A DNA stretch of 12,148 bases, taken from assembly GCA_035405085.1 (NCBI GenBank), contig DAONII010000020.1, positions 1-12,148 on the forward strand. The letters are read 5' to 3'. Each line of letters opens with the position of its first letter. Positions within the stretch are counted from its first letter, which is position 1. The translations under genes and the position numbers were made by a program. The DNA comes from a bacterium (GTDB lineage: Bacteria; UBA10199; 2-02-FULL-44-16; JAAZCA01). Below, one piece after another: positions 1 to 7,836 of the stretch. Under the pieces are notes generated by a model that was not told where the DNA came from, ran no database searches, and saw nothing but the letters and a program-made list of their open reading frames with translations.

Positions 1-328
1 CCCTCCCCGAGGGAGAGTCGCCGGGGAAGACATGATCAATCAGCTCCCGGTGCTCCGATATCCAGTCCGCGAGCATAAAGCCCCGGCAGAGCTCTGAGGG
101 ACAGAGGGAGTTGCAGGCGCAGACCAGAATCGGATTGGATTTTGTACCAAGGCACAGCAGATCAATCCGACCCAGACCCGGCACAGGAAACTCGCGATCG
201 ATGACTTTTGCGCCGGCAAAAAGGCGCCCGATCTGCGAGGAAAGCGCCGAGACAACGTCCTCTATCGAAAATGGCGGAGGCGGAACGGAGAGGCAGAGCT
301 TCAGGGCCGAGGCCTGGCGCTTCGTCAT
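1..328 (-). CDS. Hypothetical Cys-rich protein, N-terminal fragment; the 3' end runs off the window start. Motif LVCACNSLCPSELC (CxCx3Cx4C).
   Basis: Hand translation of the minus strand from ATG at 328-326 stays open to position 1 (MTKRQASALKLCLSVPPPPFSIEDVVSALSSQIGRLFAGAKVIDREFPVPGLGRIDLLCLGTKSNPILVCACNSLCPSELCRGFMLADWISEHRELIDHVFPGDSPSGR...). Third-position GC bias matches the neighbouring genes. An AAGG lies 4-7 nt upstream. The ORF starts 20 nt downstream of the ATPase stop, so it is probably co-transcribed. It is absent from the ORF track because it has no stop inside the window. Confidence 0.4.
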   Translation of the reverse strand, partial: MTKRQASALKLCLSVPPPPFSIEDVVSALSSQIGRLFAGAKVIDREFPVPGLGRIDLLCLGTKSNPILVCACNSLCPSELCRGFMLADWISEHRELIDHVFPGDSPSGR

Positions 329-348
329 CGCCTTTGGAAATACGAGCC

Positions 349-1371
349 TCATATCCTGGACGCCGCCTCCGCAAGCCTTGTTGAAAAAGACGCGACGGGG
401 ACGGCTTCGTCACCGTCGCGGGATATCGGGAATACGCTCTGCCTTAAGACCCAGGCGCGGTGTTCCCCGGCAAGGGCGGAGGCGATGCTGCAAAGCTGTG
501 CCGTCGCGAAGCTCTTCGGATGAGCCAGAGCCAGCGGCCTGCGCATGGATACCGACTCCCCCGCGAACCGGGTCTGGGGTATCCAACCGTAAAACGACAG
601 CTCGGCACAGACGCCGTGGCGCGAGGCGACCGCGGTGATCTTCTTGTAGGCCCCCACCGCCTCGAGCCTGTCGGCCGAACGGTTCACCACCATCCGAACG
701 GGAGTGCGGATGCCGAGAGCGGCTGCTGACTTCAGGGTCGCATACGCATCGAGTAGCGCCGTTGCGTCGGGAGTGGTGACGAGCAATATAGAGTGTGCAG
801 CCGCAAGAAAGCGCATAACCTGCGGGCCTATCCCCGCGGCGAGATCGACCAAAATCATCCCGCCGTCCTCCTCGAGCAAAGCCATCTCCCCTGCAAGATG
901 GCGCAGCTTCCCGAAGGAAAGCTCGGCGAGCTCCGCGAGGCCGGATCCCCCTGAGACGAGGCGGACGCCCCCCTCGCACTCGATAGCGGCGTCTTTCATC
1001 CGCACGCGCCCGGCGATGACATCGGAAACGTCGTGCCGCGGCATCACCCCCATGAGCAGGTGCGCGTTGGCGAGCCCCATGTCGGCATCCACTAGCGTCA
1101 CCCCTATTCCCCGCTGCGCGAGCAGCACCGCAAGGTTCGTGGTGACCACGCTCTTGCCCGTCCCGCCCTTGCCGCTCGCGACGCACACGACCTGCGCCTT
1201 GGCGGGTGAGACCGGTTTCACGGGTTTTTGCGGAGGTACACCCTCGGGGAGGAGGCGTTCATCGCGCAGATCCTCCCCCCGAACGCTCGTCACGTCGCGG
1301 AGGGTCCTCGCGAGGAGTCTTGCAGTTCCGGATGCCATCGGGTTCCTGACAGTTTGGGCAGTTTTTACCAC
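349..1371 (-). CDS. MinD/ParA-family P-loop ATPase (deviant Walker A, SIMIBI class) with an N-terminal extension of ~60 aa rich in Pro and Arg
   Basis: Deviant Walker A VASGKGGTGKSVVTTNLAVLLA. DADMGLANAHLLMG and ILVDLAAGIGPQV (Walker B-like) are typical of MinD/FlhG/ParA. GTG start at 1371 is preceded by GGAAGGG with a 4-nt spacer. TGA stop at 349-351. Codon bias is coding-like. Confidence 0.85.
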   Translation of the reverse strand: MVKTAQTVRNPMASGTARLLARTLRDVTSVRGEDLRDERLLPEGVPPQKPVKPVSPAKAQVVCVASGKGGTGKSVVTTNLAVLLAQRGIGVTLVDADMGLANAHLLMGVMPRHDVSDVIAGRVRMKDAAIECEGGVRLVSGGSGLAELAELSFGKLRHLAGEMALLEEDGGMILVDLAAGIGPQVMRFLAAAHSILLVTTPDATALLDAYATLKSAAALGIRTPVRMVVNRSADRLEAVGAYKKITAVASRHGVCAELSFYGWIPQTRFAGESVSMRRPLALAHPKSFATAQLCSIASALAGEHRAWVLRQSVFPISRDGDEAVPVASFSTRLAEAASRI

Positions 1372-1576
1372 GCATCCCTTCCGGAGACAAGCAAATGTTG
1401 CTAATGGGTACAGTTATTTCAAAGGGTTAGGGCAAAAAACGATGCCCGGACTCGCCTCAGGAGAGCGGGTTCATCGGAATCGTTAAACCCGGCCGCCTTC
1501 GCCTTAAAACCCGCCGAGATTGGGCTTCACAAATCGCACAACCTTTCATATGCAACTGCGATAAGGATGTACGCAC
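1372..1576. promoter_or_regulatory. Divergent intergenic/promoter region between the MinD-like ATPase (minus) and the paralog pair (plus)
   Basis: This 205-bp stretch is noticeably AT-richer than the flanking coding DNA. Both flanking genes start here and face away from each other. TTCACA and TATGCA/TCATAT -35/-10-like hexamers lie upstream of 1577, but no confident promoter can be called by eye. Confidence 0.4.
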
Positions 1577-3079
1577 ATGAAGACATCCGAATTGCTCAGA
1601 AAGTTCTCGAGCCTGAACATGGAGAGCAGGCTCATCGACGTTCCCTTCCTGCTCAGGGCCCATGAGGAGGGGATGGTCGATGAAACCTCGCTCGAACCGG
1701 TTTCTTCGCTTCTGGCGCAGGAGTTTGCGGACGAGTGGGTTCCATATCCGATAGCCGACATACTAGATGAAATCGGCATGAGCTCGCGGCCTTCTACCAC
1801 TGGCATCGTGGGCAAGGACAGGGGAACCGGAAGCAATCTTCACAAGACCTACAAGCTCGCCCTGAGCGAACTGGGCAAACTCTCCACGCGTTTTCCCGAG
1901 GCCGCGGATTACTATCGCCCCTGGCTCGAACGAATAGATAAGGAGCTGGAGCTGCACAGGAGCAAAGCTGAGAGGGAAAAACTCGAGCAAAGCCTCAATT
2001 TCTTCAGGAAGTCGGTCTACAGGGAACTCGAACGGCAGGACATCTATGAAAAACACTTCTGGAACGGCGTTCAGGCAAAGCTCTTGGACCACTACGACAG
2101 CGAGGAGAACCGTTGGCTCACGAGCGCCCACTATTTCTTGAGCATGCTAGGAGGCGCAAACGACCTGTCCCACTCTTCGAACGTGTTGGAGCTCGGCGCG
2201 CTCAAGCTCCAGATCCCGATTCTCGCAAGGGCCATATCGCACAGCGTGGAAACGCAGGGCGTCAGGTTCAACATACTGGGGCTTGGCGAGAGGACGCTGC
2301 TGGAGATAAGGGGGCGGGGTTCCCACCTTTCCCTCGACACCCCGGAGTTCGCATCGCTCGGCGTCGCGATGGGGGCACAGGATGCGCGCCCCGCAGACGA
2401 CAGGCTCACCTCGATAGCGGTCGGCCCCGAACAGACAGGGTGGCTCAGGTGGAAAAAACTGATTCAGAGCCCTCTGTTCATAAAGCACGGCGCCAGACTT
2501 TTGCCTTCAAAGGCGTTCTGGGGGGTACGATTCCCCGAGTTCAAGCCCTCGGACCCCCCCGCCTTTCTCGAGGAACACCTCGTCGGGTGGTCCTCGGAGG
2601 ATCAGCACCTGTGGGCGAAGGTTTTGAGCCTTGGCAAATCGACTCTCTACGAGATAACGATCGTAAACCAGATGAAGGGCAGGGGCGGCTACATCCCGAA
2701 CGCAGCGCTCTCGCTCGTCATATCCGACGGCAAAATAAAATCGGCGAACTACACCATATTCAAGCTCAACGGCGAAGGGAAGATGATCGTGAACGTAGAT
2801 AAGCGCCGGATAGAAAACCTCGTCGCGCGCGCGTCAAAAAAATCGGCTCCGATAGTTTCGAAGGAGGCGAAGGAGACGACCTTAAAATCGGAAGAGGTGG
2901 AGAAGAGGTTCGGAGGAATCGTATCATCGGCCAAGGGCTCCAAACCGGAGGAATCCGAAAAGAAGGATTTGCCGGCAGTGGATACGACCGAGCCGGCTTC
3001 AAACTCAGGCGCGCAGGCAACCCAACCGTACCTGCCGGTCGTGGCAACCTCCACGCTGCCCACAACTATAAAGAAATAA
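1577..3079 (+). CDS. Uncharacterized protein, paralog A (500 aa); conserved C-terminal module plus K/S/E-rich tail carrying an EKRFGGI motif
   Basis: Long ORF with ATG at 1577 preceded by AAGGA; stop TAA at 3077-3079. It is homologous along its whole length to the next ORF: IDVPFLLRAHEEG vs INVPFLLLAHERG; RWKKLIQSPLF...WGVRFPEFKPSDPPAFLEEHL...QHLWAKV vs RWKKLMESPLF...WGIRFPAMPPSDPPSFLDRHL...QHLWAQV; IVNQMKGRGGYIPNAALSLVISDGKIKSANYTIF vs VVNQFKTKNEGYNPNAALHLVIANGEIESAKYEIF. No NTPase or other known motif is recognisable. Confidence 0.85.
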   Translation: MKTSELLRKFSSLNMESRLIDVPFLLRAHEEGMVDETSLEPVSSLLAQEFADEWVPYPIADILDEIGMSSRPSTTGIVGKDRGTGSNLHKTYKLALSELGKLSTRFPEAADYYRPWLERIDKELELHRSKAEREKLEQSLNFFRKSVYRELERQDIYEKHFWNGVQAKLLDHYDSEENRWLTSAHYFLSMLGGANDLSHSSNVLELGALKLQIPILARAISHSVETQGVRFNILGLGERTLLEIRGRGSHLSLDTPEFASLGVAMGAQDARPADDRLTSIAVGPEQTGWLRWKKLIQSPLFIKHGARLLPSKAFWGVRFPEFKPSDPPAFLEEHLVGWSSEDQHLWAKVLSLGKSTLYEITIVNQMKGRGGYIPNAALSLVISDGKIKSANYTIFKLNGEGKMIVNVDKRRIENLVARASKKSAPIVSKEAKETTLKSEEVEKRFGGIVSSAKGSKPEESEKKDLPAVDTTEPASNSGAQATQPYLPVVATSTLPTTIKK

Positions 3080-3098
3080 CGACTTTCGAGGAACTCGG

Positions 3099-4628
3099 AT
3101 GAACATATCAAAATATCTCACACGGATCAGCGACGACGGAAACTACTCGGGGCACATAAACGTGCCTTTTCTGCTCCTCGCGCACGAGCGGGGAATCATA
3201 GGCGAAAATGAACTCGCCCGGGCCGCGGTCCTCATCGAGGAACAGCAGGACGGCTTCTACCAGATTTCAAACGAGGTCCTGGTCAGCCTGCGCATAAACG
3301 CGGGTGTAGGTCCCGAACACGCCGAATTCCGAAGGAAAATCTCCGAAAACCGCATCGACGACGGCAGCAGGGAAAACCTGGAGGAGAACCGCCTTAAGGC
3401 GCAGGAGTCGCTCCGTCTTTTGGAGAAGGGTTTTCCCGGAGTCGCGCGCGACTACGGCCGCTGGCTGACGGAGATATCGCGCCTCGAAAAGAGGGCCTTC
3501 AACACTCCGACTCGTCAGTACGCGGCCGGCCAATACCGCCTCTTTCATGAAACCTCCATGTGGGAGGAGATGGAGATCCAAACCCTCGCCGAGAGACGCA
3601 TGTGGAACAGGGTCGGAATATCCGTGCTCACCGAGGTGCAGGGGAGCGACGCGCTATGGCTCAAGAGCGCCATGGACTTCATAGACGGGATAGGCGATGC
3701 AAACGCAGACATGGGGCGCCCCTCGCAGAGGTTCAGGTTTGACGCGATAGCCTTCCAGACCGCCGTCCTTTCCGCCGCCGTCACGTGGTCGCTCGCCGAG
3801 CTCTCCACCGCCTATCGCCTCACTGAGGTCGGCGAAAAAACGGTCGTGGAAGTGGATGGTCTCAAAACCCCGGTCGTCGTCAGCACCCCGGAGTTCGCAT
3901 CCGTGGACATAGCCGTCAGAATCCACGAGGGGCACCATATCGGAGGCGGATTCGTCACGCTCCCGCCTGGCCCCGTTCAGCTGGGAGAAAAACGTTGGAA
4001 GAAGCTCATGGAGAGCCCGCTTTTTTCAGCGCATCCCACGCGGCTCATACCGTCGGATGATATCTGGGGGATACGTTTCCCCGCGATGCCCCCCTCCGAC
4101 CCGCCGTCCTTCCTAGATAGGCATCTGGAGGGACTCAGGACGCCGGAGCAGCACCTGTGGGCACAGGTGAACGACATGGACAGTTTACAGAGATACGGCA
4201 TCACGGTGGTAAACCAGTTCAAGACTAAGAACGAGGGATACAACCCGAATGCGGCGCTTCACCTCGTGATAGCAAACGGAGAGATAGAGTCCGCGAAATA
4301 CGAGATCTTCGGACTGAAGGACAACCATTCGCTGACCGTCGAGGTCGACGAGGCACGAATCTCAAATCTAATCGCCCACGCCCTGAAGTACAAAAAGTCG
4401 CCTTCGCCCAGGCAGACGGCTGACCCGGCGAAGGGTTCCGAGGGCGGGAGGAAGAAGAGGTTCGGCGGAATCTCGAAATCCGGGCGGGCCCGGCGGAAAT
4501 CGTCCTCAAAGAAATCCGGCCTTTCGGTTTCAGGCGAAGACCAGCGCAAAGTCATACCCCTGCAGCCGGCCTATGCCGCCCCGGTAATAGCCGCCTCCAC
4601 AAACGCGGTTTTGAAAGCGACCCGATAA
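3099..4628 (+). CDS. Uncharacterized protein, paralog B (509 aa); same family as 1577..3079; basic Lys/Arg/Ser-rich tail with KKRFGGI motif
   Basis: ATG at 3099 is preceded by GAGGAA with a 5-nt spacer, 19 nt after the paralog A stop. Stop TAA at 4626-4628. It aligns along its full length with paralog A at roughly one-third identity by eye, including the N-terminal MxxSxxLxR(F/I)S...VPFLL motif. Confidence 0.85.
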   Translation: MNISKYLTRISDDGNYSGHINVPFLLLAHERGIIGENELARAAVLIEEQQDGFYQISNEVLVSLRINAGVGPEHAEFRRKISENRIDDGSRENLEENRLKAQESLRLLEKGFPGVARDYGRWLTEISRLEKRAFNTPTRQYAAGQYRLFHETSMWEEMEIQTLAERRMWNRVGISVLTEVQGSDALWLKSAMDFIDGIGDANADMGRPSQRFRFDAIAFQTAVLSAAVTWSLAELSTAYRLTEVGEKTVVEVDGLKTPVVVSTPEFASVDIAVRIHEGHHIGGGFVTLPPGPVQLGEKRWKKLMESPLFSAHPTRLIPSDDIWGIRFPAMPPSDPPSFLDRHLEGLRTPEQHLWAQVNDMDSLQRYGITVVNQFKTKNEGYNPNAALHLVIANGEIESAKYEIFGLKDNHSLTVEVDEARISNLIAHALKYKKSPSPRQTADPAKGSEGGRKKRFGGISKSGRARRKSSSKKSGLSVSGEDQRKVIPLQPAYAAPVIAASTNAVLKATR

Positions 4629-4674: not shown

Positions 4675-6567
4675 TTGACCTCGAGCCCGGTCCGGGAGAT
4701 TTTGCGTCAGATGCTCAGGATCGACAGCCTGCACAAGTCCTACGGATCGCAGAAGCTCTTCGACGGCGCCTCGCTCCAGATGTCACAGGGCGAAAGGCTG
4801 GGCCTCATGGGCCGCAACGGCCACGGCAAGACTACGCTGATGCGCATCGTAATCGGCGCCGAGGAGGCCGATTCCGGCACGATAGAGCTCCCGAAAAACT
4901 ACAGCATCGGCTACCTAGAGCAGCACATCCACTTCGAGAGCCCGACGGTTCTAGATGTGGCCTGCGAGCGGATCCCCGAGGACAGGCTCCACGAGAGCTA
5001 CCGCGCCGAGGAGATACTCTTCGGGCTGGGCTTCTCGAAGGACGATCTGTCGCGCGCGCCCCAAATGCTATCCGGCGGCTTCCAGGTCAGGCTTCAACTC
5101 GCGCGCACGCTCGTCGAATCGCCAGACCTCCTGCTCCTCGACGAGCCGACTAACTATCTCGACATAGTGTCGGTGCGATGGATAACGAAGTTCCTGCGCG
5201 CATGGGACCGGGAGCTGATCGTAATATCCCACGACCGGGAATTCATGGATTCGGTCACCACGCACACCGCCATCATCCACAGAGGCGTCATTCGCAGGAT
5301 GCCAGGCTCCACCGGAAAGATATGTGAGCAGATAGCGCAGGAGGAGGAAGTCTACGAGAAGACGCGCATAAACGAGGAGCGAAGGCGCGCGGAGCTTTTG
5401 AGCTTCGTCGAGCGCTTCAAGGCGAAGAACACTAAGGCCTCCGCGGCGCGCTCGAAGATGAAGATGCTGCAGAAGATGCCGCTTCGCGACAAACTCGAGC
5501 AGATAGCCGACCTCGACTTCCGCTTCCGATACAAACCCTTTCCAGCAAAGAACGTCATGGAAGTCGAAGGCCTTTCGTTTTCATACGGCGACGCAGCCCC
5601 CCTCATATCCGATTTCAAAATCAGGGTGGGCGCCGACGACCGAATTGCGGTCATAGGCAAAAACGGAAAGGGTAAATCAACCCTCCTGAGGCTTCTTGCC
5701 GGCGAACTCGAGCCGAACGCGGGCTCTGTCCGCATGCACGCGCAGGCGTCCCCCGGCTTCTTCGGCCAGACGAACATCGAACGCTTGGTGCCATCGCGCA
5801 CCGTTGAGGATGAGATCGCGGCGGCCAACCCCGCGCTCGGCAAGAGCGCGGCGCTTGGGCTCTGCGGCCTCATGATGTTTTCCGGCGAGCGCGCCCAGAG
5901 GAGGATATCGGTCCTCTCCGGCGGCGAGAAGAGCCGCGTGCTCCTAGGAAGGATACTTGCGACACCTGCGAACCTGCTCCTTCTCGACGAGCCCACGAAC
6001 CACCTCGACATGCAATCGGTGGAGGCGCTCTCCGAGAGCATCGACGAGTTTCCAGGCGCGGTCGTCATCGTAACGCACGACGAGATGCTCCTCCGAAGCG
6101 TCGCCACGCGCCTCGTAGTCTTTCAGGGCGGAGGAGTCGAGCTCTTCGACGGAGGCTACGATGACTTCCTGGAGAGGATCGGCTGGGAGGAGGAGGCCGA
6201 TTCCGGAAAAGAGGACGCCCCGCGGGAGGGGAAGCCCGCCGCCGGCAGGAGGGAGCTGCGCCGCCTGCGCTCTAAAATCGTTCAGGAGAGATCCTCCGCG
6301 ATGCGCCCGCTGAAGGAGAGGATCGACTTCGCCGAGAGTTCCATCTGCGAGCTCGAGAGACAGATGAAGGAGGCGGAGGGCGGGCTGATCGAGGCGTCCG
6401 AGAATAAAGACGCCGTCAGGTGCGCCGGGCTCTCTCGAAATCTCAAGGAGTGTGGGGAGGGCATAGAGAAGCTCTTCGCGGAGCTCGAAGATGCCACGCT
6501 CGAATTCGAGCGCCTCTCAAAGCTCTTTGAAGAGCGCCTGGAAGAACTCGAGCCCGAAAACTCCTGA
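4675..6567 (+). CDS. ABC-F family ATPase (two tandem ABC domains plus C-terminal coiled coil; Uup/YheS-like ribosome-associated ATPase)
   Basis: Two Walker A motifs (GRNGHGKTTL, GKNGKGKSTL). Two ABC signature motifs (LSGGFQVRLQLARTL, LSGGEKSRVLLGRIL). Two Walker B motifs (LLLLDEPTNYLD, LLLLDEPTNHLD). Inter-domain linker of charged residues. C-terminal heptad-like Glu/Leu/Arg-rich coiled coil, as in Uup. The track start is a TTG at 4675. An in-frame ATG at 4711 gives the classic ABC-F N-terminus MLRIDSLHKSYG and may be the real start. Confidence 0.9.
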   Translation: MTSSPVREILRQMLRIDSLHKSYGSQKLFDGASLQMSQGERLGLMGRNGHGKTTLMRIVIGAEEADSGTIELPKNYSIGYLEQHIHFESPTVLDVACERIPEDRLHESYRAEEILFGLGFSKDDLSRAPQMLSGGFQVRLQLARTLVESPDLLLLDEPTNYLDIVSVRWITKFLRAWDRELIVISHDREFMDSVTTHTAIIHRGVIRRMPGSTGKICEQIAQEEEVYEKTRINEERRRAELLSFVERFKAKNTKASAARSKMKMLQKMPLRDKLEQIADLDFRFRYKPFPAKNVMEVEGLSFSYGDAAPLISDFKIRVGADDRIAVIGKNGKGKSTLLRLLAGELEPNAGSVRMHAQASPGFFGQTNIERLVPSRTVEDEIAAANPALGKSAALGLCGLMMFSGERAQRRISVLSGGEKSRVLLGRILATPANLLLLDEPTNHLDMQSVEALSESIDEFPGAVVIVTHDEMLLRSVATRLVVFQGGGVELFDGGYDDFLERIGWEEEADSGKEDAPREGKPAAGRRELRRLRSKIVQERSSAMRPLKERIDFAESSICELERQMKEAEGGLIEASENKDAVRCAGLSRNLKECGEGIEKLFAELEDATLEFERLSKLFEERLEELEPENS

Positions 6568-6653: not shown

Positions 6654-7694
6654 TTACCTCCTCCTCCTCCTCGCGAGCGGTATGGCCAGCGCCGGCAGGA
6701 GCAGGAGCAACCCCATCGGATTGAATGCAGCGCCGGGGATAAGGGCGCAAGAACCGTCTGCGGCTGCAGCGAAGGATTCGGGAGTCACGGTCGAGCCGCT
6801 CTCGAGCTGCATCCTCATCGCCTCCTTTTCGTCGCAGATTGCGCCGGCGGGAATCACCTGGTCGTAGTTCGCCACGTCCCTGCAGTTGTCCACGGAGTCC
6901 GGCACGCCGTCTCCGTCCGCGTCGCGGTCGGAGAGAACGAGTGCAGAGGCGGTGGAGATGAGCGGGCTGAGTTCCGGCACGAGCTTACCGTCCTCGTCCC
7001 TTATCGCCGCGGCGAACATCATCGTGCGGAAGCCCATGCCCATCGGCGTATCGGAGAGCGCTATTTTCCACTTCCTGGCGACCTCGTCCGCCGTGGTGCC
7101 GGTCAGCTTGAACTGCTCCAGAGTGGCCTCCGGGAGGGCGCAGCGGAAATACCCGGCATCGCCGACCACGCGGTCGTCAACGCAACGCACCTCGCACTCC
7201 GCCTGCTCCACTATGCGGTTCATAAGGGGCGCGGCCGGAAAGACGATCAGCGGAAAAATCTTCGCGTTTGCCAGTCTGGCCAAACACCTTGTGTTCTCGA
7301 TTGGAACGGGATGGAGCTTGTCGCAGTAAGCGCCCAGGATCCCAGGCATGTCGACGCCCTTTTCGAGCTTCACGTACGGCGCCTTCAGTTTGCCGTAGAG
7401 GATCACCTGGTGCCTCGCGCCGTCCTCGCTTAGCTTGATCGCGATGAGGTAGTCGTCGAGGTGCTTTGACAGCACGCGCTCCTTAGTCCAGGGCTCGAGC
7501 GGATCCAACACGGGGCCCGGGGTGGGAAGCGGCGGCTGTGGTTGAGGCGGCACGGGCTGCACCTGCCCCGGCAGAACCGAAGGCGGAATGATGACCGGCG
7601 GATCAAACGTAGGCGGGCCCGCAAAGGCCGCCTTCGCGCCGAAGGCTATGAGCATCAGTACCGAGACTAAAAGCGCAGGAGCAATCCTCTTCAT
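6654..7694 (-). CDS. Secreted protein: signal peptide, Pro-rich linker, Cys-rich domain, thrombospondin-type-3-like Ca-binding repeat, and a C-terminal hydrophobic helix plus RRRRR (exosortase/PEP-CTERM-like sorting tail)
   Basis: ATG at 7694 gives MKRIAPALLVSVLMLIAFGAKAAFAGPP, an n-h-c signal peptide. It is preceded by a perfect GAGGAGG (plus-strand CCTCCTC at 7700-7706) with a 5-nt spacer. The track's longer start at 7817 lacks an RBS and reads through a palindrome. Linker: PPQPQPPLPTPGP. Repeat: DRDADGDGVPDSVDNCRDVANYDQ (a DxDxDGxxDxxDNC TSP3-type repeat). Tail: ...IPGAAFNPMGLLLLLPALAIPLARRRRR-stop. Confidence 0.8.
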   Translation of the reverse strand: MKRIAPALLVSVLMLIAFGAKAAFAGPPTFDPPVIIPPSVLPGQVQPVPPQPQPPLPTPGPVLDPLEPWTKERVLSKHLDDYLIAIKLSEDGARHQVILYGKLKAPYVKLEKGVDMPGILGAYCDKLHPVPIENTRCLARLANAKIFPLIVFPAAPLMNRIVEQAECEVRCVDDRVVGDAGYFRCALPEATLEQFKLTGTTADEVARKWKIALSDTPMGMGFRTMMFAAAIRDEDGKLVPELSPLISTASALVLSDRDADGDGVPDSVDNCRDVANYDQVIPAGAICDEKEAMRMQLESGSTVTPESFAAAADGSCALIPGAAFNPMGLLLLLPALAIPLARRRRR

Positions 7695-7699
7695 AAGAA

Positions 7700-7706
7700 C
7701 CTCCTC
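7700..7706 (-). promoter_or_regulatory. Shine-Dalgarno site GAGGAGG for the secreted-protein gene
   Basis: The reverse complement of CCTCCTC lies 5 nt upstream of the ATG at 7694. Confidence 0.7.
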
Positions 7707-7807
7707 AAATGGCCCCCTTGGTATTTTATCCATCCAATAAGGATACTTAGCAAACTTCAGGCCAAAAGGGTATTCAATTTTCAACGGGATGCCCGCAGCA
7801 GCGCGCA

Positions 7808-7836
7808 GGTCCTGCATCCGGAGGGGATGCAGGCCC
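7808..7836. promoter_or_regulatory. Perfect 9-bp inverted repeat CCTGCATCC-GGAGG-GGATGCAGG (possible operator or RNA hairpin) in the 5' region of the secreted-protein gene
   Basis: Read directly from the sequence: 7811-7819 is CCTGCATCC and 7825-7833 is GGATGCAGG, with a 5-nt spacer. There is no adjacent U-tract on either strand, so it is not a classic intrinsic terminator. It lies about 115-140 nt upstream of the 7694 start. Confidence 0.3.

Follow-up and report, generated by a model that had tools for sequence, protein, structure and literature searches.

The 12,148-nucleotide stretch of DNA analysed here (the window; positions 1 to 12,148 of contig DAONII010000020.1, assembly GCA_035405085.1, from a bacterium of the GTDB lineage UBA10199) carries two adjacent genes, A and B, whose products are diverged paralogs that lie outside every family and solved structure tested and represent a very rare orphan family. 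The pair and the short elements belonging to it are as follows.

1558 to 1566, plus strand: GCGATAAGG, before the start codon of the first paralog and kept in three lineages (alignment).
1577 to 3079, plus strand: gene A, the first paralog, an open reading frame (ORF) with an ATG start, 500 amino acids (aa).
3080 to 3098, plus strand: spacer of 19 bp between A and B, with GAGGA about 7 nt ahead of the ATG of B (ribosome-binding site read by inspection).
3099 to 4628, plus strand: gene B, the second paralog, an ORF with an ATG start, 509 aa, architecture as in A; NCBI HPQ80399.1, 'hypothetical protein'.

The first-pass annotation of this DNA had described two same-strand genes 19 bp apart whose products align end to end at about one-third identity, and the exact coordinates together with the BLASTP alignment (35% identity and 50% positives over 469 columns, E=5e-79) bear this description out. 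The motifs that it had listed as common to both proteins are seen in the alignment, namely M-x-x-S-x-x-L-x-[RK]-[FI]-S and VPFLL[RL]AHE[ER]G at the N-terminus and a C-terminal module of RWKKL.xSPLF, WG[VI]RFP, PSDPP[AS]FL, QHLWA[KQ]V, VNQ and GYxPNAALxLVI, and KRFGGI is also present in both A and B. The spacer with its GAGGA suggests co-transcription with a separate translation initiation for each gene, and GCGATAAGG probably contains the ribosome-binding site of A. A and B are real coding genes, since homologues exist, the AlphaFold2 prediction is confident and substitutions between near-identical strains are mostly synonymous (loci L001 and L002, 99.4-99.7% DNA identity, with one synonymous change in A, and three synonymous and one non-synonymous in B). 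The G+C content at their third codon positions (0.735 and 0.741) lies at the low end of the 0.74-0.84 of their neighbours, and this likeness makes recent import unlikely. No transmembrane segment was found in either protein (maximum 19-residue Kyte-Doolittle-type hydropathy 1.3), and with neither such a segment nor a signal peptide A and B were ruled out as membrane or secreted proteins; exosortase-type C-terminal sorting was likewise ruled out, there being no N-terminal signal.

That the pair has no recognisable family or catalytic signature was upheld by negative results from Pfam, NCBIfam, PADLOC, PHROGs, PDB sequences, and PDB and BFVD folds. With family membership defined as reaching the family cut-off or E<=0.001, no assignment was obtained for A, B and 12 relatives in Pfam-A, NCBIfam, PADLOC and PHROGs (best E=0.013, all matches below cut-offs), and PDB sequences searched with A alone and with a 14-sequence profile gave nothing better than E=0.14. 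The census of the family was a full HMMER search with an A+B profile through 1.84 billion representatives (each standing for a 50%-identity cluster, out of some 15 billion proteins), which returned 14 clusters, all metagenomic, the weakest at E=7e-16 with nothing beyond; ten of the 14 were looked up and hold 1-3 members each, from metagenome assemblies. The only NCBI records seen for the family are the window's own 'hypothetical protein' entries ('MAG TPA: bacterium', MAG standing for metagenome-assembled genome). No family member was found in the viral contigs tested, a genome-collection scan with A/B motifs gave no relatives and a literature search with locus tag and accession found nothing, while a word-indexed protein search was uninformative, returning the query alone (with P0014 once) and missing paralog B although it is in its collection. 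For the whole window Rfam gave no match, and a promoter and terminator scan stayed at background level. A phage or defence origin was ruled out on the negative results from PHROGs, PADLOC and BFVD. The earlier view of an undescribed family kept as a pair is largely right.

A first AlphaFold2 run on A with an alignment of A and B only gave a poor model (predicted local distance difference test, pLDDT, 40.6), which was discarded, and a run with 14 family sequences gave a pLDDT of 78 and a predicted template modelling score of 0.74, with a pLDDT of 90 or more at 266 residues and agreement among five models. The structure search proposed at first pass, made with this confident model, yielded no significant fold match to PDB or to viral structures (BFVD); EspG3 was among the weak Foldseek matches (E 0.57-1.4, non-significant). 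In the model residues 1-226 of A form an N-terminal helical bundle and residues 231-422 a C-terminal alpha/beta domain, with the following parts.

Residues 1 to 65: small helical subdomain.
Residues 66 to 87: variable loop.
Residues 88 to 226: long-helix bundle, including a 44-residue helix at 130-173.
Residues 231 to 254: three short strands.
Residues 261 to 340: highly conserved, loop-rich region carrying LVSLPVG and W..L..SPLF..H..RLLPS..FWG..FP.
Residues 343 to 407: antiparallel meander of five strands.
Residues 409 to 422: terminal helix of the alpha/beta domain.
Residues 424 to 500: disordered tail ending in LPVVATSTLPTTIKK.

The N-terminus of A is folded in the prediction (residues 1-50 helical, pLDDT 87-96), and over the first 20 residues the charges sum to about +2 in A and to 0 in B. 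Across both clades of the family (see below), at 23-35% identity to A, the residues P107, A110, E150, Q154, E158, A208 and Q212 are invariant, as are G237, P256, L308, P310, R411 and L415 (A numbering), and N163, W292, F301, H304, S311, P324, Y392 and others are at least 90% conserved.

The shared basic low-complexity tail of the first-pass annotation holds for B only, whose tail has 20 K/R against 4 D/E (isoelectric point 11.4), whereas that of A is nearly neutral (13 K/R against 11 D/E) and those of other relatives are neutral or acidic, so that a basic tail is not a family feature. Across the family the tail is between 16 and 88 residues long, with Gly, Ser, Pro, Ala and Thr prominent in its composition, and its charge varies between acidic and strongly basic. 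At its end stands a short Pro-hydrophobic peptide, to which Lys or Arg is often added (LPVVATS..IKK, APVIAAS..KATR, IPVVPAGCALRR and LPIVPLNMMLLRS are examples), and two members with tails of 16-17 residues retain solely this terminal peptide. On our reading, a variable linker would join the folded core of these proteins to a docking peptide at their end. The tail ends may resemble encapsulin targeting peptides; A and B were rejected as encapsulin cargo, no shell-like domain being present in 8 scanned window ORFs or in related loci.

The family falls into two clades separated in 100/100 bootstraps of a neighbour-joining tree: the window clade, G1, with three lineages (the window with L001 and L002; L003, L011 and L094; and L004), and a second clade, G2, with six (L005-L007, L008, L009, L010, L012 and L093) and a GC content from 45% to 68%. 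Every G1 lineage has two tandem copies with spacers of 19-48 bp, and with L005-L007 and L008 tandem pairs occur in five lineages. A single copy was detected in the other four G2 lineages, L009, L010, L012 and L093 (the last by BLASTP and hidden Markov model). Reciprocal best hits define a first type (window A, L004 gene 1, L011 gene 2) and a second (window B, L011 gene 1, L004 gene 2), so both types are probably older than the split of the three G1 lineages; both are retained in all three, with their order swapped in L003/L011, and the A-type/B-type split is weakly supported in the tree (25-48% of bootstraps). The reading of A and B as diverged paralogs is confirmed by the E-value of their alignment, which lies well outside chance. 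An old duplication kept as a pair, as first proposed, is probable for G1, and pairs recur in five lineages; the proposal does not extend to the four single-copy G2 lineages, nor to the L007 pair, which is monophyletic in 100/100 bootstraps and goes back to an independent duplication or gene conversion. Singleton homologs in unrelated contexts, which had been named as what would refute the proposal, are found in part, in four G2 lineages, whereas G1 always has pairs.

The genes and elements around the pair in the window clade are listed next, the 88-aa orphan being given on L001.

2 to 352, minus strand: first 117 codons of the gene for a 227-aa orphan, truncated at the edge of the window (translation); the full gene is at 1937-2620 of L001, minus strand.
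349 to 1371, minus strand: MinD-like deviant-Walker-A ATPase (SGKGGTGKS), divergent from A; Pfam CbiA, ParA and AAA_31.
1393 to 1431, no strand: 39-nt non-coding element AAATGTTGCT-N13..14-TTTCAWWGGGTTAGG between the MinD-like gene and the first paralog (alignment).
4675 to 6567, plus strand: ABC-F ATPase, 46 bp after B, 72% identical in L011.
L001 767 to 1033, minus strand: 88-aa orphan of the ATPase operon with a Lys/Arg/Thr-rich N-terminus, MRTQKTTGKTTKRTVTK.

In all three G1 lineages the gene order is an 88-aa orphan, ParA, a 227-230-aa orphan and the MinD-like gene, followed divergently by the two A/B paralogs. The MinD-like ATPase matches NCBIfam minD_arch at 2e-34, under the cut-off of that family, and starts at 1371 (GTG) or 1338 (ATG, JGI gene call, 329 aa); its stop codon is overlapped by 4 nt by the gene of the 227-aa orphan. 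Neither small orphan, of which the first measures 87-88 aa across G1, has a family match. The N-terminus of the larger is Lys/Arg-rich (MRLVFPKAMTKRQ), which makes this protein a candidate partner of the MinD-like ATPase, and it is as rare as the A/B pair and found in the same lineages, a metagenome scan giving only two short contigs, again from these lineages. By our own reading its GRIDLL...PILVC segment loosely recalls a degenerate PD-(D/E)xK strand pair.

Between G1 lineages identity is 85% for ParA, 83% for a ferritin, 76% for the 88-aa orphan, 72% for ABC-F and 62-68% for the MinD-like ATPase (L003, L004), against 39-42% for the 227-aa orphan and 28-45% for the A/B paralogs; the pair evolves much faster than those of its neighbours at 62-85% identity. 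The 39-nt element is conserved although the A/B proteins flanking it are only 28-45% identical. Its exact pattern has a single occurrence in the window (0 expected) and is found in each of the five G1 loci that span the region (L001 3661-3699, L002 1173-1211, L003 1175-1213, L004 1997-2035 and L011 3558-3596) and in 0/91 other loci. Read on the minus strand it gives TTGAAA-17 nt-AACATT, which is sigma-70-like and preceded by CCTAACCC, and it could be the promoter of the ATPase operon with an operator. Between this element and a CAAC...GCGATAAGG block the alignment places about 95 bp, window positions 1440-1535, that are extra relative to L003 and L004.

Downstream of the pair G1 has the ABC-F gene, with the ferritin inserted in L004, and ABC-F and B are possibly in one transcript. 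However, 80 orthologous ABC-F loci in other genomes have neither the A/B family nor the ATPase operon, and since the pair is missing there a functional partnership with ABC-F was rejected; the gene is probably a housekeeping one, kept by plain synteny and outside the module. Of the two neighbours with which, according to the first-pass annotation, the pair might recur, the MinD-like gene is kept in G1 only and ABC-F is probably incidental. The nearest relatives of the ABC-F protein come from MAGs that are unclassified or labelled 'Deltaproteobacteria'/Myxococcota (66%, 56% and 54% identity). Further along, at 6654-7817 on the minus strand, the window encodes a 387-aa protein with a thrombospondin type-3 repeat and a C-terminus, …LLLLPALAIPLARRRRR, which resembles MYXO-CTERM/JDVT-CTERM sorting signals in weak matches (E 4e-4 and 0.42), a resemblance that fits a Myxococcota-like or related host.

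What is observed here for A and B is their paralogy, a predicted fold, rarity, recurrence as pairs and, in G1, a conserved neighbourhood with its intergenic element. Since neither experiment nor homology fixes their function, its assignment rests on genomic context, from which we infer the assembly, the formation of a heteromer, the link to the ATPases and each functional step set out below. Genes for ParA/MinD ATPases frequently lie close to those of the cargo, and the partner proteins of these ATPases differ widely from one another and work via disordered, positively charged N-termini (PMC10241942). The 88-aa and 227-aa orphans with their Lys/Arg-rich N-termini fit that description. A and B, whose N-termini are folded, are unfit as partners and would therefore be cargo. 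We tentatively favour, as a possibility and not as the probable answer, that A and B are a co-expressed scaffold or cargo of the adjacent ParA/MinD systems. Under this proposal A and B would be soluble paralogs of the cytoplasm, transcribed together and belonging to an orphan family of restricted lineages, and they would build a protein scaffold or body in which the two most likely combine as a hetero-oligomer. The divergently transcribed operon would have this body as its cargo, and in that operon each of two ParA/MinD-type ATPases would be paired with one of the small orphans as putative partner or adaptor, and the ATPases would position or partition the assembly while the tethered C-terminal peptides of A and B recruit clients or link subunits. 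Identity falls from ParA through the MinD-like ATPase and the 227-aa orphan to the A/B pair, and such a gradient from ATPase to partner to scaffold is what we would ourselves expect these systems to show; the 39-nt element shared between operon and pair agrees with an ATPase link. The gene order common to the three G1 lineages, the retention of both paralog types in each of them, the lack of a transmembrane segment, the G+C content that speaks for resident genes and the occurrence of the 227-aa orphan in the same lineages as the pair also count in favour of the proposal. The fuller version, in which A and B form a novel protein body or cytoskeletal scaffold, with a fold that has no solved relative, positioned by a dedicated pair of ParA/MinD ATPase-adaptor systems, we regard as improbable.

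Several observations weigh against this proposal. The adjacency is present in the three G1 lineages, and no ParA/MinD gene was seen in the sequence examined for any of the six G2 lineages (flanks from under 1 kb to 10 kb), whose members adjoin large unannotated proteins instead. The G1 lineages are themselves related, with ABC-F and ferritin in common synteny, so the adjacency could be inherited gene order with no link in function. The prediction gives the family a folded N-terminus (pLDDT about 90), which sets A and B apart from classical ATPase partners. Finally the invariant polar residues (E150, Q154, E158, Q212 and R411, with H304, S311 and Y392 at least 90% conserved) might belong to the site of an enzyme or of a ligand rather than to a scaffold.

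The contexts of the second clade supply the strongest of the other explanations, and their features are these.

L007 1 to 2214, L008 2020 to 5115, L010 6761 to 8452 and L012 461 to 4036: 'up1', a large protein upstream of the G2 gene.
L009 836 to 4243 and L093 1 to 1167: 'up2', a different large protein near the L009 and L093 genes, 32% identity over 149 residues.
L005 5509 to 6576 (also in L006 and L007): stand-alone SctU/FlhB homologue, 355 aa, 65 bp downstream of the G2 pair.

In four G2 lineages the family gene follows 57-193 bp after up1 on the same strand. The up1 proteins (563-1191 aa) are homologous, with 24-36% identity over 300-630 residues, and have a conserved core of about 400 aa with the motif FD[GRA]-x12-17-E[EV]xK-x25-QLQ.[LM]KQL.YAKA, which by our own reading may resemble that of PD-(D/E)xK, restriction-endonuclease-like nucleases, a lead without Pfam support. 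The up2 proteins carry a GSxVxG...SDxD motif and have weak NTP_transf_2 and MntA-like matches (E 0.035 and 0.07, non-significant), so that as a lead from motif reading they may have a pol-beta-like nucleotidyltransferase domain, and that of L009 has a Gly/Ala-rich hydrophobic stretch. Neither up1 nor up2 matched a family in Pfam, PADLOC, PHROG and the other collections, and hhalign gave no relationship between the A/B family and up1, the 227-aa orphan and up1, or up1 and up2. The SctU/FlhB homologue scores just under the SctU and FlhB cut-offs and is followed by a polyketide synthase cluster, and no other genes of a type III secretion system (T3SS) were seen around it in 13 kb.

From these contexts comes another explanation, which we consider doubtful: the A/B family could serve large multidomain effector-like proteins of a conflict or secretion module as their conserved accessory, be it an adaptor, chaperone, regulator or sensor, and the large partner in G1 would be encoded elsewhere or lost. 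This explanation would account for the position of the family gene behind up1 in four lineages and close to up2 in L009 and L093, for what we read as Gly/Ala-rich hydrophobic central regions in both large proteins and for their C-terminal D...ExK...Q (up1) or GS...SDxD with weak NTP_transf_2 (up2), as well as for a pair that is fast-evolving, repeatedly duplicated and very patchy and, in one lineage (L005-L007), for the neighbouring SctU/FlhB gene. However, no component has a PADLOC, PHROG or Pfam match, the enzymatic motifs are our own reading and not significant, no large partner was seen at the window, L001, L003/L011 or L004 loci, and the G1 locus holds a stable place in the chromosome and its codon usage is native. 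One and the same family also accompanies upstream proteins of two different kinds, the reverse of what immunity to a specific toxin would show; polymorphic-toxin immunity was rejected on the same grounds, up1 and up2 being not detectably related and the window having no upstream toxin-like gene.

The conserved polar residues raise the further explanation that A and B have a new fold and act as enzymes or bind small molecules, the two copies having diverged in specificity; the long helix (E150/Q154/E158), helix 201-226 (Q212) and the C-terminal domain (H304, S311, Y392 and R411) would form the site between them. The degree to which these residues are conserved across such divergent clades speaks for it, as does the E-x3-Q-x3-E spacing, which in the predicted secondary structure falls on one helix face, but there is no known catalytic motif or fold match and so high a substitution rate is unusual in core enzymes, and we hold this explanation to be unlikely. 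Quite improbable, in our estimate, is that there is no joint system, A and B having arisen just by tandem duplication of an orphan gene specific to the lineage and each acting by itself, with ATPase and ABC-F as irrelevant synteny: the single-copy members of four lineages, the independent duplication of the L007 pair and the ABC-F loci elsewhere without the pair are consistent with it, but both copies are retained in three G1 and two G2 lineages, at spacers of 19-48 bp in G1, and the intergenic element common to the pair and the ATPase operon is conserved. A T3SS or flagellar component or substrate was rejected, with no Pfam or NCBIfam match to such families and a SctU/FlhB neighbour just in L005-L007.

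Among known systems, one close to A and B is PomX/PomY with the ParA-like ATPase PomZ of Myxococcus xanthus. PomX and PomY are, as A and B would be, lineage-restricted, fast-evolving, non-enzymatic scaffolds with long helices and low-complexity regions, encoded beside a positioning ParA/MinD-type ATPase; unlike A and B they are not paralogs of each other, and they share no sequence or structural similarity with them. The A/B locus further differs in having two ATPases and two small orphans and no ATPase neighbour in G2. ParB, MinE and McdB resemble A and B in high diversity and in disordered, charged regions and, for G1 but not for the G2 sequence examined, in lying beside a ParA/MinD ATPase (PMC10241942). 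In those partners, however, it is the N-terminus that is disordered and positive, whereas A and B have a folded N-terminus and C-terminal disorder that is not consistently basic; A and B do not match this N-terminal signature, residues 1-50 being predicted helical in place of a disordered positive peptide, and the 88-aa and 227-aa neighbours fit that role better. Effector adaptors or chaperones whose genes lie beside those of large secreted toxins, such as Eag/DUF1795 and DUF4123 of type VI and EspG of type VII secretion systems, recall the G2 arrangement of a family gene directly following a large protein with a hydrophobic centre and a variable C-terminal domain, but the A/B family is much larger (470-540 aa), the window has no secretion-system genes and the fold matches are non-significant. 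Spectrin-like and EzrA-type helical bundles offer no evidence of homology, designed bundles scoring equally through generic helix packing, and EzrA has a transmembrane anchor and no alpha/beta domain.

The newness of A and B lies in the fact that no known family or fold fits them and is not a claim of a new mechanism; they are a clean, structurally confident orphan family and not the answer to a standing question, and their extreme rarity (14 clusters among 1.84 billion, all uncultured) limits their general importance. As constant partners of effector-like proteins they would point to an undescribed conflict or secretion module. As a self-assembling cargo or scaffold of the ParA/MinD systems they would be an addition to the short list of protein structures positioned by such ATPases, with a new fold, and the protein body would be a new kind of cargo for positioning machinery in an uncultivated lineage of 'deltaproteobacterial' grade.

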